Source of the DNA: Candidatus Dadabacteria bacterium | GTDB lineage: Bacteria; Desulfobacterota_D; UBA1144; Nemesobacterales; CSP1-2 | Length of the DNA stretch: 64,000 nucleotides | Direction of reading: 5' to 3' | NCBI GenBank assembly: GCA_963805855.1 | Contig: CAWDVW010000002.1 | Coordinates: forward strand, 640,001-704,000 | Shown here: piece after piece, positions 15,001 to 45,000 of the stretch | Layout of the letters: each line of letters opens with the position of its first letter | Position numbering within the stretch: position 1 is the first letter of the stretch | Made by a program: the position numbers

Positions 15001-18000
15001 CTCTTCTTCGAATTCCATAAATGTTGCCATCTTGGGAGTAACCGTTAGACGCGAGTTTCTACTTAACTCACCTACTTCCAATTCGAATACGTGTACGTCC
15101 TTGTCCTCGAGCCTGATCGCATATTTCTCCTTTCTTCTTCTTGGATCATGGAGTCGAGAAGGAAAGACCCTTTGAACATCGACATCCGCAATCAGTAGCT
15201 CCTCTTCGAAGCCAGATGCACGTGCTAGTACTTCTCCACGCTCATCTATAATTACGCTATGTCCATCAAAAATCAACTCATCCTGCCCTCCCACTAGATT
15301 ACAGAAACCTATAACTACCGAATAATCAGATGCCCGTGTTAGCAACATTCGCTCCCTTGCCTGTACCTTAGAGGCGTAATAGGGAGATGAAGAGATATTC
15401 AAAATTATCTGAGCATCACCTAAAAGCGCTTGTTTTCTCGTCGGGTCGCCCGGATACCATATATCTTCACAGATATTCACACCGAAAACAAAATCGCCAA
15501 GTCGATAGACCGGTGTTCTCACGCCGGCTTGAAAATATCTGTTTTCGTCAAATACGCTGTAGTTTGGCAGGTAGCATTTGTGGTAAACATCTATTAGGAC
15601 CTTGTTGTGAATGATTGCTGCTGAATTGTAAATATCTTGGTTTCTATTTGCAAAGCCTGCGACTACGGTTATGGAATCTGTTGCCTTTCTCACCTCATCA
15701 AGAGCTTTTAAGTTATCCTCAATAAAGCTTGGTTTAAGCAACAGATCTTCAGGCGGATAACCGGTGATCGCGAGTTCAGGAAAACATATTATGTCGACCC
15801 CAGATTTTTTTGCGAATCTTATATATTTTATAATCTTTTTGAGGTTACCCTCTATATCACCTACTGATACATTAATCTGACCCAACCCCAGCCTGACTTT
15901 ACGCATGATATAATATTACCACATCAATCGCTCTATTAACCATTATACAAATTAAATGACGATCTAGTAAGCCGCAGGAAGTCAGCAAACACAAAGAGAC
16001 TGCCGATGGTAGGGCTGGGGGTGTCAATTGCGGTACTTCGACCAGCTCACGGCAGGCTTGCTCGTTTGACAGTAACTTAGGGTTTATACTCCAAATGTTT
16101 TATCCGTACGGGGTTGGAAAACCCCTCCTAGCGTTATTGATGACAATGTTATTTATTATGGATAGTCGGGACATTCTTGTCCCGAAGTTTGAACATGCTT
16201 CTTGATCTCAATAAATTCGTTTCCATCGTTACCGATTAATGTTTTAATTACTGCTACGGGTAGGCAAAGGGTCCCTTCGACCAGGTTAGTGTAGGCTCCT
16301 TCGAAGTAACCCGCTACCTCGCGTCGGAATAGATATTGCTTAAGTTATTGAATTTCTTAGTCAAAATGAAATTAAGTCCTAGCAAATCGCCAGAAATACG
16401 AAATCTTCAATTATTGCGTCGAAATGTAGACAAGGTTAGAAAGGAAATGAAATATTATGCTTCCCCAGAGGGTTCCGGTCCTAACATACAGATATCCCAT
16501 GACAAGGGAGGGGAAAAAAGTAAGAACACTCTGAGTGCAAATCCCGCCAATAAACCCCGATGCCACACATAGTGTAAAGAAATGTCCTAATGCAAAGAAA
16601 ACACTCACAAAAACAACTCCCTTCAGGTCGTTCCCTAATTTTTCCTGCAGATAACCACGGAAAAAAACCTCTTCTGGAAGCGCAACAAAAAATAGCTGCA
16701 AGGCAATCAGTATAGCGCTGATTCTATCTACGTTAATCGTGGCACCGGTAAGCAGCAAGTCTAACAGTATATACGTAGGAAGAATGACTATTGACACGAT
16801 TACTCCAATCAACAAACCACCCGGATCCCATTTAAGACCACTCATTCTATCAGTCAGTAGAAACGGTGTGGAAAACAGTATCAGCGCCGCAATAGCGAAT
16901 GAAAAATCAGGGAAAAAGATTCGAGTAAGGGTTATAAGAAATATAACAACAACGTATATTGATAAAGGGGTGAGGTAACTTCTCTTCAATACGCTTTTCC
17001 TATGTTATCCTTCGTAATTGATTATGTGCTAAAAAGATTAAACGGAGTTAAAACTACATAAGTTAGATGATAAGGTCAATCAATTTCTTTAAATGAAAGA
17101 AGAAATAATCTGTTATGTCCAACTTAATGGTGGCATTTTATTTTATAGAAGATAAGACCTTAAATCTTTTATACCTTTTCAAGATGCATGCAAGAGATAT
17201 CTTGTGATAAATGGGGTCCCTTCCGGCCGTAATAGATTGGTGCGAATTCAGTCCTCAATAATCGGAATCCGCCTGGATTAATAATGAATAATTTATTAAA
17301 TTCGGATCATTATCGATCAAAAACTTTAAGGGGCAACGAAGTATCGGAACATGAAACAAGCCGAAAAGCACACAAGCGGCTTGACTCACATTTCTCGAAG
17401 ATCTTCTAAACATTGTCCGAAGTCATTATACTATTGTGAGCACAATGAGCAATGCCCAACTCAACTACATATTCCTCCAGGTAAACCGCTTATCGTTAAT
17501 TCCGCTGGTACATTAAACACTTAACCGCGATGATAAAGTCCATTTCCATGAAGAAAATTCTTTATCATAAAACACCCTCGACTCACACAATCAAACTCAA
17601 TCTATCTAACACGAAATTGATGGTCTTCGTAGGTTTATTCTTAATCACATTCGGTGCTGCAGCTCTAAGAGTTAAAGACATTACCGAAAATCCACCCGAA
17701 CTTTACTCGGACGAGCTTGGCAACTTTGTTTCGGCGAAGAGCATCGTAGAAGAGGGCAAAGATCTCCATGGAAGGTTATTACCATTCTTCTATGACCGGG
17801 CGGAATTAAGGCCACCGATCTATGGTTACTGCGCCTATCTTGCTTCGAAATTTTTTATTAATCCAACTTTTGCGATCCGTTTCCCTGCCATAATCTTTGG
17901 GCTCATCACAATTATAATGCTTTTTATGTTGACTCTTGAATTAACTGGCAGCCACGTTGCTGCGCTCTTCAGTGCCTTTTGCCTGGCAATAATCCCCTGG

Positions 18001-42000: not shown

Positions 42001-45000
42001 CTCCACATTCCCTGACTATTGGATCAAATTCCCCAGGACCCCTGTCACCAAACGGAGGAAGCGGGAAAAGCCCCCACTGGCATACACCCCTTGCCGTGTT
42101 TGCCACCTCAATGTATGTGTTTCTAGTATCCTTTTGATTATACTTGCTTATCAACTGTGAGCCGGTGATGGTCGTATTGAGGAAGCTTCCCCTGAAGACC
42201 AGGTCATTACCAACGATATCAATTTCTGGGATTAAATTACTGCCAGTAAAACTGAAGATCGAGGCATAGAACCAATCGACACCGCCGGTAACAAATCCAT
42301 CCGGTACTCGTTCGGCTAGGAACAGGTTCGCACCAACAAAGTTCGCCCTGACCGGATTTACGGTAAGATCTAGCCATCCAACCTTGAAGGCATCACCGGC
42401 GCCCGGACAAATCGGCTCCGGGGCAAGTGGGGCTACCCCCGCCTTGGAGTCTTTAACTGAATAACCTATCATCAAGAGCATTAGTAATGCCATAATGATA
42501 GTCGAGCCTTTAAATCTAACTGGTATCATTATTTATCCTCCTTTATTTGTTTTTTGAATGTCATAAACGTTTTCTCCTTAATTTAGAAACAACTAACAAA
42601 TGGCAACCCGCAGAGTGCCCTTATGAATGGCTGTATTCCGAATAGATCGAGGAAACCAACGCTTGAGAACGGGGTTGATATAACGGAATCCATGCTTCCA
42701 GTGTCTCCACCGTTGTTCAGGCCATAGAAACCGCTGAATATGACACCTGGCGGTATCGCGGTAATAAATCCATCCAGGATCAACTGACCAACTTGATCTG
42801 GCCCTGAGCAGATATTGTCTCCGTCCTGGACAAGAAGGTTGTTCCCTTCCCTGCTCGCAGGATGCGCACCATTTATACCCAGATCAAAACCAACCACAGG
42901 ACTCTGACCGAAAAGACCAAATACAATACTGGCTACGGTCCCTGCGTTGTCTAAATCGCATAAAAAGGCAACCGGTGGACAGTCTTCCACCTGTTCGTTC
43001 TCATCCCATATATTAGCGCTGAAACCGGCAAATATGTTTCCCGCAACAGATACTGTCGCAGTACCTGTGGCCGTACTCAAATCAAATAGGGGTAGCACAG
43101 CAATCCCATAAACGTCAGACATGTTATTTCCATCGACACTGTCAAAAGGAATCGAATAATTTCCTGGCAGTGAGAAGAAGGCGCCTAATACGTCGCCAGC
43201 TATTGACAGCACCGAGAGGCCATTCAGGTTTGTCCTGTACTCATAACCCTCATCCCTCACAATCCTTATATTTCCAATGGCTTGACCAAGCGCTATGTCA
43301 CCATTTCCATCCGCTACCGACGCTACGAATATACCATAACTGGGATCACTGAAGTCTGTAATGTCCTGACCGTCATTAGAAACCATATTGCTCAAGTCAT
43401 AGACAAATGTATCATCATGAGTGTAGGTGTCGAAGAAGCTCGTCACCCTACAATTGTCCGAGACGTCAAATATCTGAACGTGAACCCTCAGAGGCAGGCT
43501 AGAGGTATTTGTAAGCTGAATCGTGGTGTTGCCCTCCCTCTGGTCAAAAACACCAAAAAGCATTAGCACTCCAGTATCATTGTCAGTATCCGCGATTGAA
43601 AGCGGAAGTATTCCCCCGGCCCACGCCCTGGCCGGAACAAATATTAAAGCTGCAAGCAACAGCACTTTGAGCTTTGCCATAACACTTTTTAAAAGCATAA
43701 CGTTTATCCTCCTTCTTTGTTTTATTTCTTCTGATACAACTTTAGTCATTTATCATCCTCCTTTTTTGTTTCTCAGAAATATTTGGGGGTTGGACAGAAG
43801 CAAATTGGTGTCAGAATGCGAGCCACTTCAAATATCCTTTGGTAACCTTCGGTTCGCCCCAAACTCAATTGCTCTGGCGATTTTTCCATTTCCCAAATTA
43901 CATCACACATAAATCACTTTGTCAAGACCTTTTTGTTTAAAATCAAAAAACAAGAAGTGGGTAACTCTGAGCCCTCCCTTAAGATTTTTCATATTACATC
44001 ATATTCAGCATATTATGTCAATAGGCAATTTACAACTTTTTTGATTTTGCGTCAAGATGCCCATCTTTACAATTTCTTTTTGCATGATCATTAATCTCGA
44101 CTTTGGTAAAGCATCCGAACATTCCGAATATAAAGTATCCGAATATATAGAAGAAAGTCAAGAGAAAATCATTTGCATATGATGCGAAACAAGAATTTCA
44201 TTATCACCTTCTGGTATTCTGGTATTAAGGTAGCTTCTGTTACCTCAATTCCAGTCCTCGACAACAAGACGGTATAGGTAAATAGTTGCCGCTGAATATG
44301 ATATGATGTTCCGTTCTCCATATCTCTAATATTAAAAAGTGTGTGATAGGAGAAAGGTTCAATCTCGGAGTTTATCTGAAATACATCGAAGGGCAAATGA
44401 CGGAGTTGTGGGAGCCAGTGGCAGGAATAAGGAATATGATTATTCTAGCGGCGACATTCAGACATCTGTGATGTCTTGGTTTAGATGTAGCGGAAACCTT
44501 CATGTTTCCACAATAAAAACCTGGAGGACTAAAGTCCTCCGCTACACAAGAAGGCAGTATAATTGTTGTAAGGGTCACATTTAGGTCGCCACACAAAGAA
44601 TGTCAACCGGTTTCAGAAGAAAGACAAATAGGCTGAAGGACTTCGAATACACCAATCCATTCATATATTCCGTCACTATATGCAGCTATAAAAAAAGCAA
44701 AACCTTTGTTAATAGGGACACAGTCTCAGAAACGGTAAAGCATCTTGGGAAATCGGCACATAGGCATAACCTTCAGGTGCTCGCCTATTGTTTTATGCCC
44801 GATCATCTTCACATTTTGGTTGGCTCCAATAACATTCAAGGTAGCCTAATAAATTTTATCAAGTATTTCAAGCAGAAAACCGGGTACGAATTTAAGAAGA
44901 AGCATCATATTAAACTATGGCAAAAAAGTTTTTACGATCACATACTACGTAAGGAAGAATCGGTAATCGATGTAGTGAAATATATATTCGATAACCCCGT

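Follow-up and report, generated by a model that had tools for sequence, protein, structure and literature searches.

The window analysed here is a stretch of 64,000 nucleotides from the Candidatus Dadabacteria genome G000. It holds a protease gene, two proteins with a Cys-containing C-terminal tail, and genes for glycosyltransferases. The features are as follows, with positions counted along the window.

14167..15906, minus: presumably NadE-like, to judge by its sequence; lies next to the protease, on the downstream side, in most of the regions read
16411..16989, minus: candidate sorting enzyme, a glutamic intramembrane protease of CPBP/Rce1 type with 192 aa; PF02517, 69 bits (cut-off 22.4)
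17530..24917, plus: variable block with GT-C-like membrane proteins (17530-19110, PMT_2; 20058-21275, no family match, probably GT-C; 22938-24917, DUF2298-like)
19210-19908, plus, and 21842-22804, minus: additional GT2 genes
25016..25642, minus: GtrA-family membrane protein
25731..27038, minus: protein O-mannosyltransferase-like GT-C (PMT and PMT_4TMC; PF02366, 77.6 bits; PF16192, 93.3 bits)
27293..28003, minus: GT2 glycosyltransferase upstream of the PMT-like gene
28074..31249, minus: GMC oxidoreductase (29603-31249) and, beside it, a split repeat protein that we take from its motif to be FG-GAP-like
34260..36740, plus: candidate substrate 1, 826 aa; hydrophobic N-terminus, beta-helix, choice-of-anchor Q, two DUF11 domains, Cys tail
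36606..36737, plus: putative sorting tail of substrate 1; Gly-rich, Cys789 (codon 36624-36626), CSMA, spacer, LLLP helix, RKK
40406..42529, minus: candidate substrate 2, 707 aa, Cys-rich; core domain common to the 388-aa neighbour
40409..40549, minus: putative sorting tail of substrate 2; Cys667 (codon 40529-40531), CGSIA, ANILIPLVP helix, RRKKK
42583..43749, minus: secreted 388-aa homologue of substrate 2, without tail, all-beta

The NadE-like gene serves as a synteny marker for the protease locus, and in compact clusters such as those of G015 and G089 the protease often has the GtrA-family gene immediately upstream. Substrate 1 lies outside the conserved gene order; a tail-bearing orthologue of substrate 2 is found at the same place in nine of 20 protease regions read. 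Pro/Thr repeats had been attributed to both window substrates. They are present in substrate 2 (encoded at 40760-40801 and 40589-40606) but not in substrate 1. The N-terminal domain of the 388-aa protein resembles the TM1070/ASRT beta-sandwich (Z 12.6, rmsd 2.4, 105 residues aligned), and the fold matches of the 388/707-aa family are to TM1070/ASRT in this first domain. The only sign of a likeness between this family and S-layer proteins is a feature match of 0.77 to a cluster in which Slr4 makes up 22%. The PMT-like gene scores 113 on the NCBIfam model Pmt (NF058602, cut-off 800), and both its Pfam domains exceed their cut-offs. The repeat protein is split by one extra base at 29064, which is missing from the contigs of two public runs.

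The C-terminal Cys tail

The tail has a tripartite layout, in which a Gly-rich stretch is followed by Cys-[SA][ILV]A, a spacer, a hydrophobic helix with Pro, and a basic end. The seven ORFs listed in the initial annotation (C2:372688, 597113, 674260, 680406; C3:7580; C5:930266; C7:321493) are all present, each with a Cys-containing C-terminal tail, as are the fragments C2:594068 and C2:594363. A screen of the genome that ignored Cys, selecting ORFs of at least 150 aa with a C-terminal hydrophobic 13-mer, then at least three K/R, and no TM segment in the body, returned 11 ORFs, seven of which are the tail ORFs. The motif G.?CG?S[ILMV]A occurs at -55 to -25 in seven of 2512 ORFs and elsewhere in one of 23186 windows of 30 aa; these counts are post hoc, because the motif was derived from the same seven tails. 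As annotated, all seven tails fall under every NCBIfam cut-off (top score 14.0 bits; JDVT cut-off 27).

As Haft's criterion asks, the carriers differ outside the tail, and a tail-less homologue (the 388-aa protein) exists beside substrate 2. The description of seven unrelated proteins does not hold in full: the ORFs have six different architectures, and two are paralogues, C3:7580 being the 3' portion of a frameshifted paralogue of C2:597113 (81% identity). The start of C7:321493 likewise lies behind frameshifts, and this ORF has no signal peptide. N-termini are hydrophobic by eye in five of the seven, and these two ORFs are 3' pieces. LYLLIP, proposed as a shared core, is not common to all: (P)LYL[LV]xP fits only four of the seven tails; the window substrates lack it, and their helices read IIILLLP and ANILIPLVP instead. 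In the loci read, the tails close at stop codons of long ORFs.

A model of 71 rows was trained on Dadabacteria tails, and the invariance of Cys in its alignment is by construction. The distance from Cys to the C-terminal end is 29 to 58 aa (median 37) in these tails, in line with Haft's position criterion, and the median number of basic residues is four. Cys+1 is S, A or T, and Cys+2 is aliphatic. Pro occurs within the helix in 61 of the 71 Dadabacteria tails and 28 of 31 Nitrospirota tails, and is placed at Cys+18/19 in 41 of the 71. A second Cys is found in none of the 102 tails, and GCGC in none of the 71. The DP motif is present in one Dadabacteria tail and no Nitrospirota tail; Asp or Asn stands at Cys+9 to Cys+16, near the JDVT Asp position, in 30 of the 31 Nitrospirota tails. 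JDVT-CTERM is the commonest weak match (26 of 71), and the 71 tails gave no match to GlyGly-CTERM or CGP-CTERM (TIGR04288).

The candidate sorting protease

The protease belongs to the CPBP/Rce1 class, with a PF02517 match, the motifs EExxxR, FxxxH and HxxxN, and an Rce1 fold. The motif residues (E106-E107-x3-R111, F132-x3-H136, T157-FFPS, H181-x3-N185) are invariant in 28 orthologues. The predicted structure (pLDDT 94) has eight helices, and its top fold match is MmRce1 (4cad, TM 0.71). The protease, its VALPEEVFFRGY motif and its family matches below cut-off are as first annotated: the scores, in bits against the cut-off, are MrtP 67/250, Mrt_core 64/100, MrtS 55/130, MrtX 54/180 and MrtJ 39/75. 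The MrtC score is 50/195. Eight Dadabacteria-type representatives reach 60-71 bits on Mrt_core (NF040914), under the cut-off of 100, and MrtX, MrtC and MrtP are likewise under cut-off in G000. The proteases score 36-53 on MrtJ and 49-78 on MrtS, and most of those of the Nitrospirota type score best on MrtS (56-78 bits).

The substrate-specificity stretch of myxosortases, FFPxLxxG, is present as TFFPSLxMG in 12 of 12 Dadabacteria rows, in agreement with the MrtX specificity peak RLSVFFPALIFGW (Haft's preprint). The closest relatives outside the phylum are in Thermodesulfovibrionia (Nitrospirota), and the next are Mrt_core members (51 of 117 scanned pass the Mrt_core cut-off). FFPxLxxG and these relatives place the protease in a myxosortase-like clade, within trees that have no non-myxosortase outgroup. 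In these quick trees of 116-120 columns, which contain no true MrtJ, MrtS, MrtX or MrtA sequence, the protease forms a branch (support 85-97) distinct from that of the Mrt-core and MrtJ-like proteins, and is separate from the group containing the single near-MrtJ sequence.

Distribution of tail and protease

Among 120 genomes of the phylum, the 71-tail model finds the tail in 91 (909 matches, 1-59 per genome), with no match at E<=0.001 in the other 29, and the protease is found in 85. Both are present in 84 genomes, the protease only in one, the tail only in seven, and neither in 28. The lone protease-only genome carries a truncated tail. The initial annotation had raised against itself 27 genomes with protease and no signal; with the 71-row model this shrinks to one of 85, so the earlier figure was an artefact of model sensitivity. 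Its statement that the signal never occurs without the protease does not hold in these 120 genomes, where seven of the 35 lacking the protease carry the tail. These seven genomes are fragmented or incomplete, and the neighbouring nadE is cut by a contig end or unassembled in four of five checked. G079 has 288 bases upstream of nadE without any protease piece, and G022 and G046 allow no verdict on protease loss.

The 28 genomes with neither component form about three lineages, mostly streamlined, in which the type II secretion system (T2SS) is also lost, so the co-loss is partly general gene loss. The PF02517 match is wholly absent in 27 of them, and the protease is the sole such match in 48 of the 85 protease genomes. 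G019 (99% complete) lacks both tail and protease and keeps gspD. This gene is over cut-off in G000 and 89 of 120 genomes, and absent from the two families without the sorting system.

The PMT gene is not required by the sorting system. The reported clustering of protease and PMT gene is a conserved neighbourhood, found in 29 of 41 PMT-bearing genomes at 0.8-14 kb (8.7 kb in the window). The PMT gene occurs in those 41 of the 120 genomes and is missing from 51 of the 91 with tails, including the closed genome G018, which has 59 tails. Genus g19 has no PMT gene in 36 genomes, yet keeps the protease in 35. The S+T fraction upstream of 64 tails is 0.12 with PMT and 0.14 without (p 0.13).

Thermodesulfovibrionia, the class of G124, provide out-of-sample support through sporadic co-occurrence and direct gene adjacency. 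Among 121 genomes, 14 have both components, two the protease only, three the tail only, and 102 neither. Closer inspection shows a tail, or part of one, in both protease-only genomes, and of the three tail-only matches two are spurious. The tail is on the gene adjoining the protease in 12 of the 14 genomes with both, and on the next gene in 11 of the 15 top Nitrospirota-type loci. There are one or two substrates per genome, mostly an S8 peptidase beside the protease; these loci have aroC/aroK-like neighbours and no glycosyltransferase match.

Interpretation and relation to known systems

It is quite probable that Ca. Dadabacteria and Thermodesulfovibrionia share a sorting system of the myxosortase type, with a lineage-specific signal and a protease branch of its own. 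It would be a variant, not catalogued before, of a known kind of sorting. For the core of the initial annotation, namely a Cys-containing sorting signal and a myxosortase-type CPBP protease that acts on it, support is now stronger than before, but the label of fifth signal is not sharp: the tails grade at their edges into MYXO- and JDVT-CTERM, so a fifth signal of its kind is likely, with blurred limits.

Most likely a dedicated membrane protease clips the Cys tail, and many exported proteins would be anchored on the cell surface. Substrates would pass the inner membrane by an N-terminal signal peptide and stay fixed there through the tail helix, with its basic residues on the inner side. The Cys, which would lie directly beyond the outer face of this membrane, may receive a lipid from an unknown or general enzyme, as in the M. 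xanthus model; the CPBP protease would cut on its C-terminal side, as suggested by MrtX and Rce1; and the T2SS would carry the lipid-anchored protein to the surface. We infer lipidation, cleavage and export from MrtX, for which cleavage, Cys-dependence and reconstitution in E. coli have been demonstrated (PMC11980579). The Dadabacteria form would be a housekeeping system with one to at least 59 substrates (adhesin-like, LRR, peptidase and beta-helix proteins), and the Thermodesulfovibrionia form a dedicated one.

There is an appreciable, lesser chance that the mechanism is the same and the signal is not separate. The tails would then be divergent members of a MYXO/JDVT-like continuum, cuttable by any myxosortase-clade enzyme, and the fifth signal a mere gap in the curated models; this reading is compatible with the main mechanism and differs on classification. 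GGGC, helix and basic tail are common to all, and in the 120 genomes five Dadabacteria tails pass the MYXO cut-off (none in G000) and one the JDVT cut-off. Nitrospirota tails peak at 24.7 of 27 bits on JDVT and 19.5 of 20 on MYXO, with Asp/Asn near the JDVT Asp and JDVT-style adjacency to one substrate. Similar Aquificota tails pass MYXO in six and JDVT in one of 29 cases, our model picks up five MYXO-like tails in five Myxococcota-titled genomes, and lineage forms of MYXO-CTERM diverge enough to need custom models (Haft). However, the rarity of DP, the single Cys and the helix Pro, whose absence defines MYXO-CTERM, argue against a continuum. The 120 Dadabacteria genomes give 909 matches to our Dadabacteria-trained model versus five MYXO and six JDVT matches, while the Myxococcota-titled genomes give 67 MYXO versus five of ours. 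The protease also remains below the MrtJ cut-off and branches apart from the near-MrtJ group.

Other processing is improbable, whether rhombosortase-like after Gly-Gly or none at all, with the tail a plain membrane anchor and the protease serving the glycosylation genes. GlyGly-CTERM tails open with a Gly run, as these tails do, and the Dadabacteria protease lies amid GT2, GT-C and gtrA genes. However, none of the 71 tails matched GlyGly-CTERM, g19 retains the protease without PMT, and the Thermodesulfovibrionia protease sits beside its substrate with no glycosyltransferase match. Chance or assembly artefact, a loose pattern catching unrelated hydrophobic ends, might be suspected from the indel errors of the assembly and the two ORFs that are 3' pieces, but it is refuted by the cross-genome counts, both the 909 matches in 91 genomes and the 29 and 102 genomes that are negative.

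Under the favoured sorting reading, the window could also be a surface-glycoprotein assembly island, an extension we regard as doubtful. The PMT, GT2, GtrA and GT-C genes would glycosylate the Pro/Thr linker of the conserved 707-aa protein, the new myxosortase branch would cut its Cys tail, and the anchored protein and its tail-less 388-aa twin would form an S-layer-like coat, an archaea-style route of glycosylation, cleavage and anchoring in a diderm bacterium. The same branch would serve Thermodesulfovibrionia S8 peptidases with an N-terminal lipobox and a C-terminal Cys tail, which would be lipid-anchored at either end; Aquificota may have a third form.

One short model gives the likely surface proteome of an uncultured phylum (about 900 matches, 91 genomes) and its anchoring route. 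Beyond the four systems described so far, myxosortase-type sorting now takes in Dadabacteria and Thermodesulfovibrionia, and probably Aquificota. A single enzyme branch has both the dedicated and the housekeeping layout, which earlier work had seen only in different systems. At 192 aa, the protease is a compact member of its family and has a confident structural model. The surprise is limited, since MrtX-like chemistry is expected and Haft's paper predicts further systems.

Among the closest known systems is MYXO-CTERM (TIGR03901) with MrtX, MrtC and MrtP (NF040593, NF040594, NF040674; core NF040914), with which the new one has in common a Cys-containing tripartite tail, many substrates per genome, one CPBP protease that has a housekeeping role and carries EExxxR and FFPxLxxG, and a T2SS in the same genomes. 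MYXO-CTERM has no Pro or charge in the helix, a frequent second Cys, and a cut-off of 20 bits. In contrast, the new tail occurs outside Myxococcota/Bradymonadales and has one Cys (a second in 0/71) and a helix Pro (61/71), with five of about 900 tails over cut-off in 120 genomes, and by these criteria falls outside MYXO-CTERM. Its protease is shorter (190-205 aa), scores 60-71 against 100 on Mrt_core, and forms a separate branch.

JDVT-CTERM (NF033191) with MrtJ (NF033192) also has a single Cys behind a Gly run, and the Thermodesulfovibrionia form resembles it in the dedicated substrate-beside-protease layout, seen in this class only, and in the Asp ahead of the helix. However, JDVT-CTERM has a near-invariant DP nine residues past Cys and about one substrate per genome, whereas the new tail lacks DP (1/71, 0/31) and has up to 59 or more substrates per genome in Dadabacteria; one match over cut-off in 120 genomes and MrtJ scores of 36-53/75 place it outside that family. 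Synerg-CTERM (TIGR04564) with MrtS (NF040589) has a single Cys and an invariant Pro in a Leu-rich helix, but spans 27 positions with no spacer between motif and helix, where the new tail has about 8-13 residues. On the scores, and with no genome-wide TIGR04564 search made, membership is rejected (best 9.8 bits in G000 versus 22.5; MrtS 49-78 versus 130). CGP-CTERM, with its Cys-Gly-Pro motif, is a 20-aa signal of Thermococcales. The new tail lacks that motif (Cys+1 S/A/T, Cys+2 aliphatic), is twice as long, occurs in diderm bacteria, and has neither CGP nor MrtA among the matches listed, so it is not a member. The likeness to CGP-CTERM and MrtA is in a CPBP protease that is often the sole family member and in the Thr/Pro-rich linker before some tails, and the new protease resembles Rce1 (MmRce1, PDB 4cad) in its fold.

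The C-terminal tail and its carriers

The seven Cys-tailed ORFs proposed in the initial annotation of the 3.1-Mb genome G000 (window at C2:640001-704000) were recovered by a screen that did not require cysteine. The screen selected ORFs of at least 150 aa that have a C-terminal hydrophobic stretch followed by at least three basic residues and lack any further membrane segment. It returned 11 ORFs, including those seven, in all of which the helix is preceded by Gly-rich-Cys-(G)S-[ILMV]-A. Chosen post hoc, this motif occurs in 7 tail windows among 2512 ORFs, versus 1 of 23186 windows taken elsewhere. 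A profile of the seven tails matched only these ORFs and two fragments near C2:594000 among 67896 six-frame segments (E <0.001). The fragments (L032:569-986, G000:C2:594068-594488) are two decayed tails in tandem behind a broken ORF; one is near-identical to that of the 707-aa substrate, and both are read as remnants of lost substrates.

Other parts of the description had to be revised. The seven ORFs are not all unrelated, as C3:7580 represents the 3' portion of a paralogue of C2:597113 that is interrupted by a frameshift. C7:321493 likewise starts behind frameshifts. Both sets of frameshifts may be assembly errors, since at least one indel is absent from public-run contigs. At window position 29064 there is one extra base relative to the contigs of two public runs; it splits a repeat-protein gene (28074-29595) whose relatives are single ORFs, and it is probably an assembly error. 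The LYLLIP-type helix is not general, with PLYL[LV]xP in four of the seven tails and in neither window substrate. Pro/Thr repeats were ascribed to both window substrates and are found on the 707-aa protein, not on the 826-aa protein.

A broader tail model was built from 101 tails cut from loci, 70 of which were kept at <80% identity. Six tail matches were removed (two fragments from G000, two CGS variants, one false match and one long tail). Exclusion of one further broken tail and addition of the two window tails gave 71 rows. The consensus is GGGG-C-[SA]-[ILV]-A, a variable spacer, a Leu/Ile helix with Pro, and about four basic residues; the Cys is invariant by construction because the filter required it. 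The helix Pro is present in 61 of the 71 tails, mostly at Cys+18/19. The seven-row model was abandoned as too narrow, since it missed 18 of the 37 genomes of family f7. Tails are carried by beta-helix/DUF11, metallopeptidase-like, S8, LRR, Cache, SpaA-like and unclassified proteins. In the small genomes of genus g19 (L071, L076, L092) Leucine-rich-repeat proteins are among the tail carriers, and the helix proline is often missing. At L264 (G083:C7:348275-348388) an 803-aa ORF contains a complete tail 331 aa upstream of its C-terminus; this is either an internal signal like that of MXAN_5598 or the result of a missing stop codon.

The protease and its co-occurrence with the tail

The candidate sorting enzyme is a small protease with conserved myxosortase-like features.

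16411-16989, minus strand, 192-aa PF02517 protein (protease)

E106-E107-x3-R111, F132-x3-H136 and H181-x3-N185 are invariant in 28 orthologues. The invariant TFFPS..MG is the counterpart of RLSVFFPALIFGW, the strongest of the myxosortase-specific stretches (Haft preprint, 10.1101/2023.06.07.544157). The protein is below the cut-off of every Mrt model. Its structural model (pLDDT 94) has MmRce1 as the top match, with TM 0.71 but E 0.024. A Cys pair (window 16541-16569, minus strand), of which C141 is nearly invariant and C151 is in the consensus, sits in a loop insertion missing from the Nitrospirota-type relatives and could possibly form a periplasmic disulfide.

In a profile search against 1.84 billion representatives, Dadabacteria-type proteins came first, followed by a second tier of 175-210 aa and then by myxosortases. 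The protease has relatives named Candidatus Dadabacteria or Thermodesulfobacteriota, and the named second-tier members are Thermodesulfovibrionales and Ca. Magnetoovum. Of 150 matches, 117 were scanned; 51 pass Mrt_core and six pass MrtP. Three quick trees (116-120 columns, with neither an outgroup nor true MrtJ, MrtS, MrtX or MrtA) place the Dadabacteria proteases and most second-tier proteins on one branch (SH-aLRT 97, 90, 85), with one unlabelled row inside it in one tree. The branch is separate from the Mrt-core proteins and from the group with the sole near-MrtJ sequence (73.2/75). A search for true MrtJ among plasmids gave only five weak haloarchaeal matches. P0172 and P0301-P0415 form a separate myxosortase-like branch, some members of which are named Sulfuricaulis or Gammaproteobacteria. 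None of the 45 proteins scanned among 120 listed P0172 relatives passes the MrtJ cut-off (best 73.2/75) or any other curated one. Three loci titled Ignavibacteriales, Spirochaetia and Deltaproteobacteria (L183, L184, L171) show the Dadabacteria-type protease-nadE order and are probably mislabelled or misbinned Dadabacteria DNA.

The tail and the protease occur together in Dadabacteria. Among 120 genomes, the protease is found in 85 and the tail in 91 according to the 71-row model, which gives 909 tail matches in total; the seven-row model detected it in 72. Both are present in 84 genomes, the protease alone in one, the tail alone in seven, and neither in 28. The statement that no protease-less genome has the signal thus does not hold at this sample size. 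The protease is the sole PF02517 match in 48 of its 85 genomes, and 27 of the 28 genomes with neither component have no PF02517 match whatsoever. In the sole protease-only genome, G069, the tail is cut off by the contig start. Five of the seven tail-only genomes were tested for nadE, which normally lies downstream of the protease: it is broken by a contig end in three, and no orthologue is assembled in one. In tail-only G079, no protease piece was found in the 288 bases before nadE. Tail-only G046 also lacks gspD; it and G022 are counted neither for nor against the pairing. The largest tail count, at least 59 (60 of 71 candidates scored), is in the closed 2.0-Mb genome G018. There many tails are on ORFs of about 800 aa (L096, L101, L106, L111, L115, L119, L131), and the gene directly downstream of the protease is a tail-bearing S8 peptidase.

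Fisher tests gave p values of 1e-19 and 1e-13, which are overstated since kin are not independent and so are not taken as proof. The 28 genomes with neither component come from few lineages: family f9 (19 genomes of about 1 Mb), family f5 (six), G019, and two incomplete genomes. The type II secretion gene gspD is found in 89 of the 120 genomes and is missing in f5 and f9. The co-loss is therefore partly general gene loss, in agreement with Graham and Tully (10.1101/2020.06.22.165886), who describe T2SS as marking terrestrial clades and marine ones as streamlined. G019 (99% complete) keeps gspD and has neither tail nor protease. In G000, gspD is over the cut-off and a gspC-K-like run is recognizable by sequence features.

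The pairing recurs in Nitrospirota. The 15 best Nitrospirota-type loci are titled Nitrospirae, Thermodesulfovibrionia/-ales, Sulfobium or Dissulfurispiraceae, with one unnamed, and in 11 a tail-bearing gene directly adjoins the protease. The class of genome G124 is taken to be Thermodesulfovibrionia, as it contains the Dissulfurispiraceae genome G148. In its 121 genomes the Dadabacteria-trained tail model matches 17 and the protease model 16; 14 have both and 102 have neither. The two genes are adjacent in 12 of the 14. On inspection, a tail or fragment was found in both protease-only genomes, and two of the three tail-only matches were spurious. The Dadabacteria and Nitrospirota tail profiles align with a probability of 98. 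In most cases the substrate next to the protease is an S8 peptidase carrying an fn3 domain. All nine S8 substrates examined (L152:2257-3993, L154-L158, L162-L164) have a lipobox-like N-terminal motif besides the C-terminal Cys tail, and the peptidase may carry a lipid anchor at each end, or one of the two may be lost through autoprocessing.

The glycosylation neighbourhood

A conserved gene order surrounds the protease in families f1 and f8 (20 regions read): 388-aa gene, 707-aa substrate, thiI-like, TAT/PPIase pair, GMC, repeat protein, GT2, PMT, gtrA, a variable GT-C block, protease, and nadE-like. The labels thiI, nadE and FG-GAP are our presumptive names for cluster genes. In G015, GT2-PMT-gtrA-protease are contiguous. 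A PMT-like gene is found in 41 of the 120 Dadabacteria genomes; in 29 it is on the protease's contig, 0.8-14 kb away (19 within 6 kb), and in the window the distance is 8.7 kb. PMT as a required part of the sorting machinery was rejected, since 51 of the 91 genomes that carry the tail yielded no such gene, among them G018 and every one of the 36 genomes of genus g19. Upstream of 64 tails, the Ser/Thr content is no different with and without PMT. The link is therefore a conserved neighbourhood that lies outside the core system, although a role of PMT on the Pro/Thr linker in the 707-aa family is plausible.

Genes for a GMC oxidoreductase, a TAT-signal small subunit (gluconate 2-dehydrogenase subunit 3-like) and PPIase-like lipoproteins are also conserved in the cluster (window 29603-32165, 37636-39224). 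IS200-like transposase genes lie on either side of the substrate pair (39811-40095, 44600-45079), and loose contig ends (about 16150-16185 and 32408-32606) are a sign of small repeated elements. A promoter and terminator scan gave nothing usable (51 versus 42.2+/-6.4 and 25 versus 16.2+/-4.4 in shuffles).

The 388-aa protein shares its core domain with the adjoining 707-aa substrate but has no tail. Its model is all-beta (pLDDT 72), and the first domain, the only one matched, resembles TM1070/ASRT (Z 12.6). The 388/707-aa family has no Pfam or NCBIfam match and no Foldseek match at E<=0.001. An S-layer identity found no support, with no S-layer match and an atlas lead below threshold. In G078:C1 (555418-562218, 712266-722300, 2445734-2460703; L110, L114, L118, L122, L125), tandem paralogues of the 707-aa substrate alternate, in the stretches read, with the 388-aa twin that lacks the tail, which suggests a diversified surface coat.

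Comparison with the described Cys-CTERM systems

By its defining features the tail is none of the four described Cys-CTERM signals. A DP motif is found in one of the 71 tails and a second Cys in none. In the 120 Dadabacteria genomes, the JDVT model has six matches (one over the cut-off) and the MYXO model five (all over it). Across five genomes whose titles are of Myxococcota type, 67 matches belong to MYXO and five to the new model. The boundary against MYXO and JDVT is nevertheless blurred. Twenty-nine Nitrospirota and Aquificaceae tails are all below the cut-offs, the best at 24.7/27 for JDVT and 19.5/20 for MYXO, while the thirtieth, which belongs to a record with the title Proteobacteria, is over the MYXO cut-off. 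Asp/Asn before the helix is kept in 30 of 31 tails of the Nitrospirota-type set. A single continuum of tails with no separate fifth signal is conceivable, if somewhat doubtful; a separable signal-enzyme pair is the reading we favor.

Similar tails are found in the phylum of the Aquificaceae record, with the pattern GGGGCSM..SP.N.L.WLL.P (L231, L287-L315; L316-L327). Of 121 genomes, 34 have tails, 70 a related short protease and 21 both, while 13 tail-positive genomes have no match to the protease query; this co-occurrence is uninformative, since the tails were sought with a foreign model and the protease with one divergent sequence. Six of 29 tails are over the MYXO cut-off and one over that of JDVT. 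A single clade of Dadabacteria, Nitrospirota-type and Aquificota proteases is neither rejected nor demonstrated (p-AU 0.675). Tail and short CPBP protease are close neighbours in G343 and G257, and the Aquificota-type pair is possibly a further uncatalogued form.

Among the openly accessible papers listed for myxosortase, JDVT-CTERM, MYXO-CTERM, Dadabacteria sorting or S-layer, and two combinations of taxa, no entry describes the Dadabacteria system. Dadabacteria, Nitrospirota and Aquificota are unmentioned in the main texts of PMC11980579 and 10.1101/2023.06.07.544157, the latter in its preprint version and apart from its supplementary species table. Overall, comparative genomics gives good support to a real, uncatalogued Cys-CTERM/myxosortase-type system in two groups.

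For MrtX, PMC11980579 shows that cleavage depends on the Cys, that substrates are anchored at the surface and that the reaction can be reconstituted in E. coli, and it proposes lipidation. By analogy with MrtX at every step, the substrate would be exported and retained in the membrane by the tail helix, the Cys would be lipidated, cleavage would occur behind it, and T2SS would transfer the protein to the surface. The chemistry is expected to be that of known myxosortases. The JDVT-CTERM/MrtJ pairing was argued from sporadic presence and adjacency (Haft preprint, 10.1101/2023.06.07.544157), and the evidence for tail and protease in Nitrospirota is of the same type.
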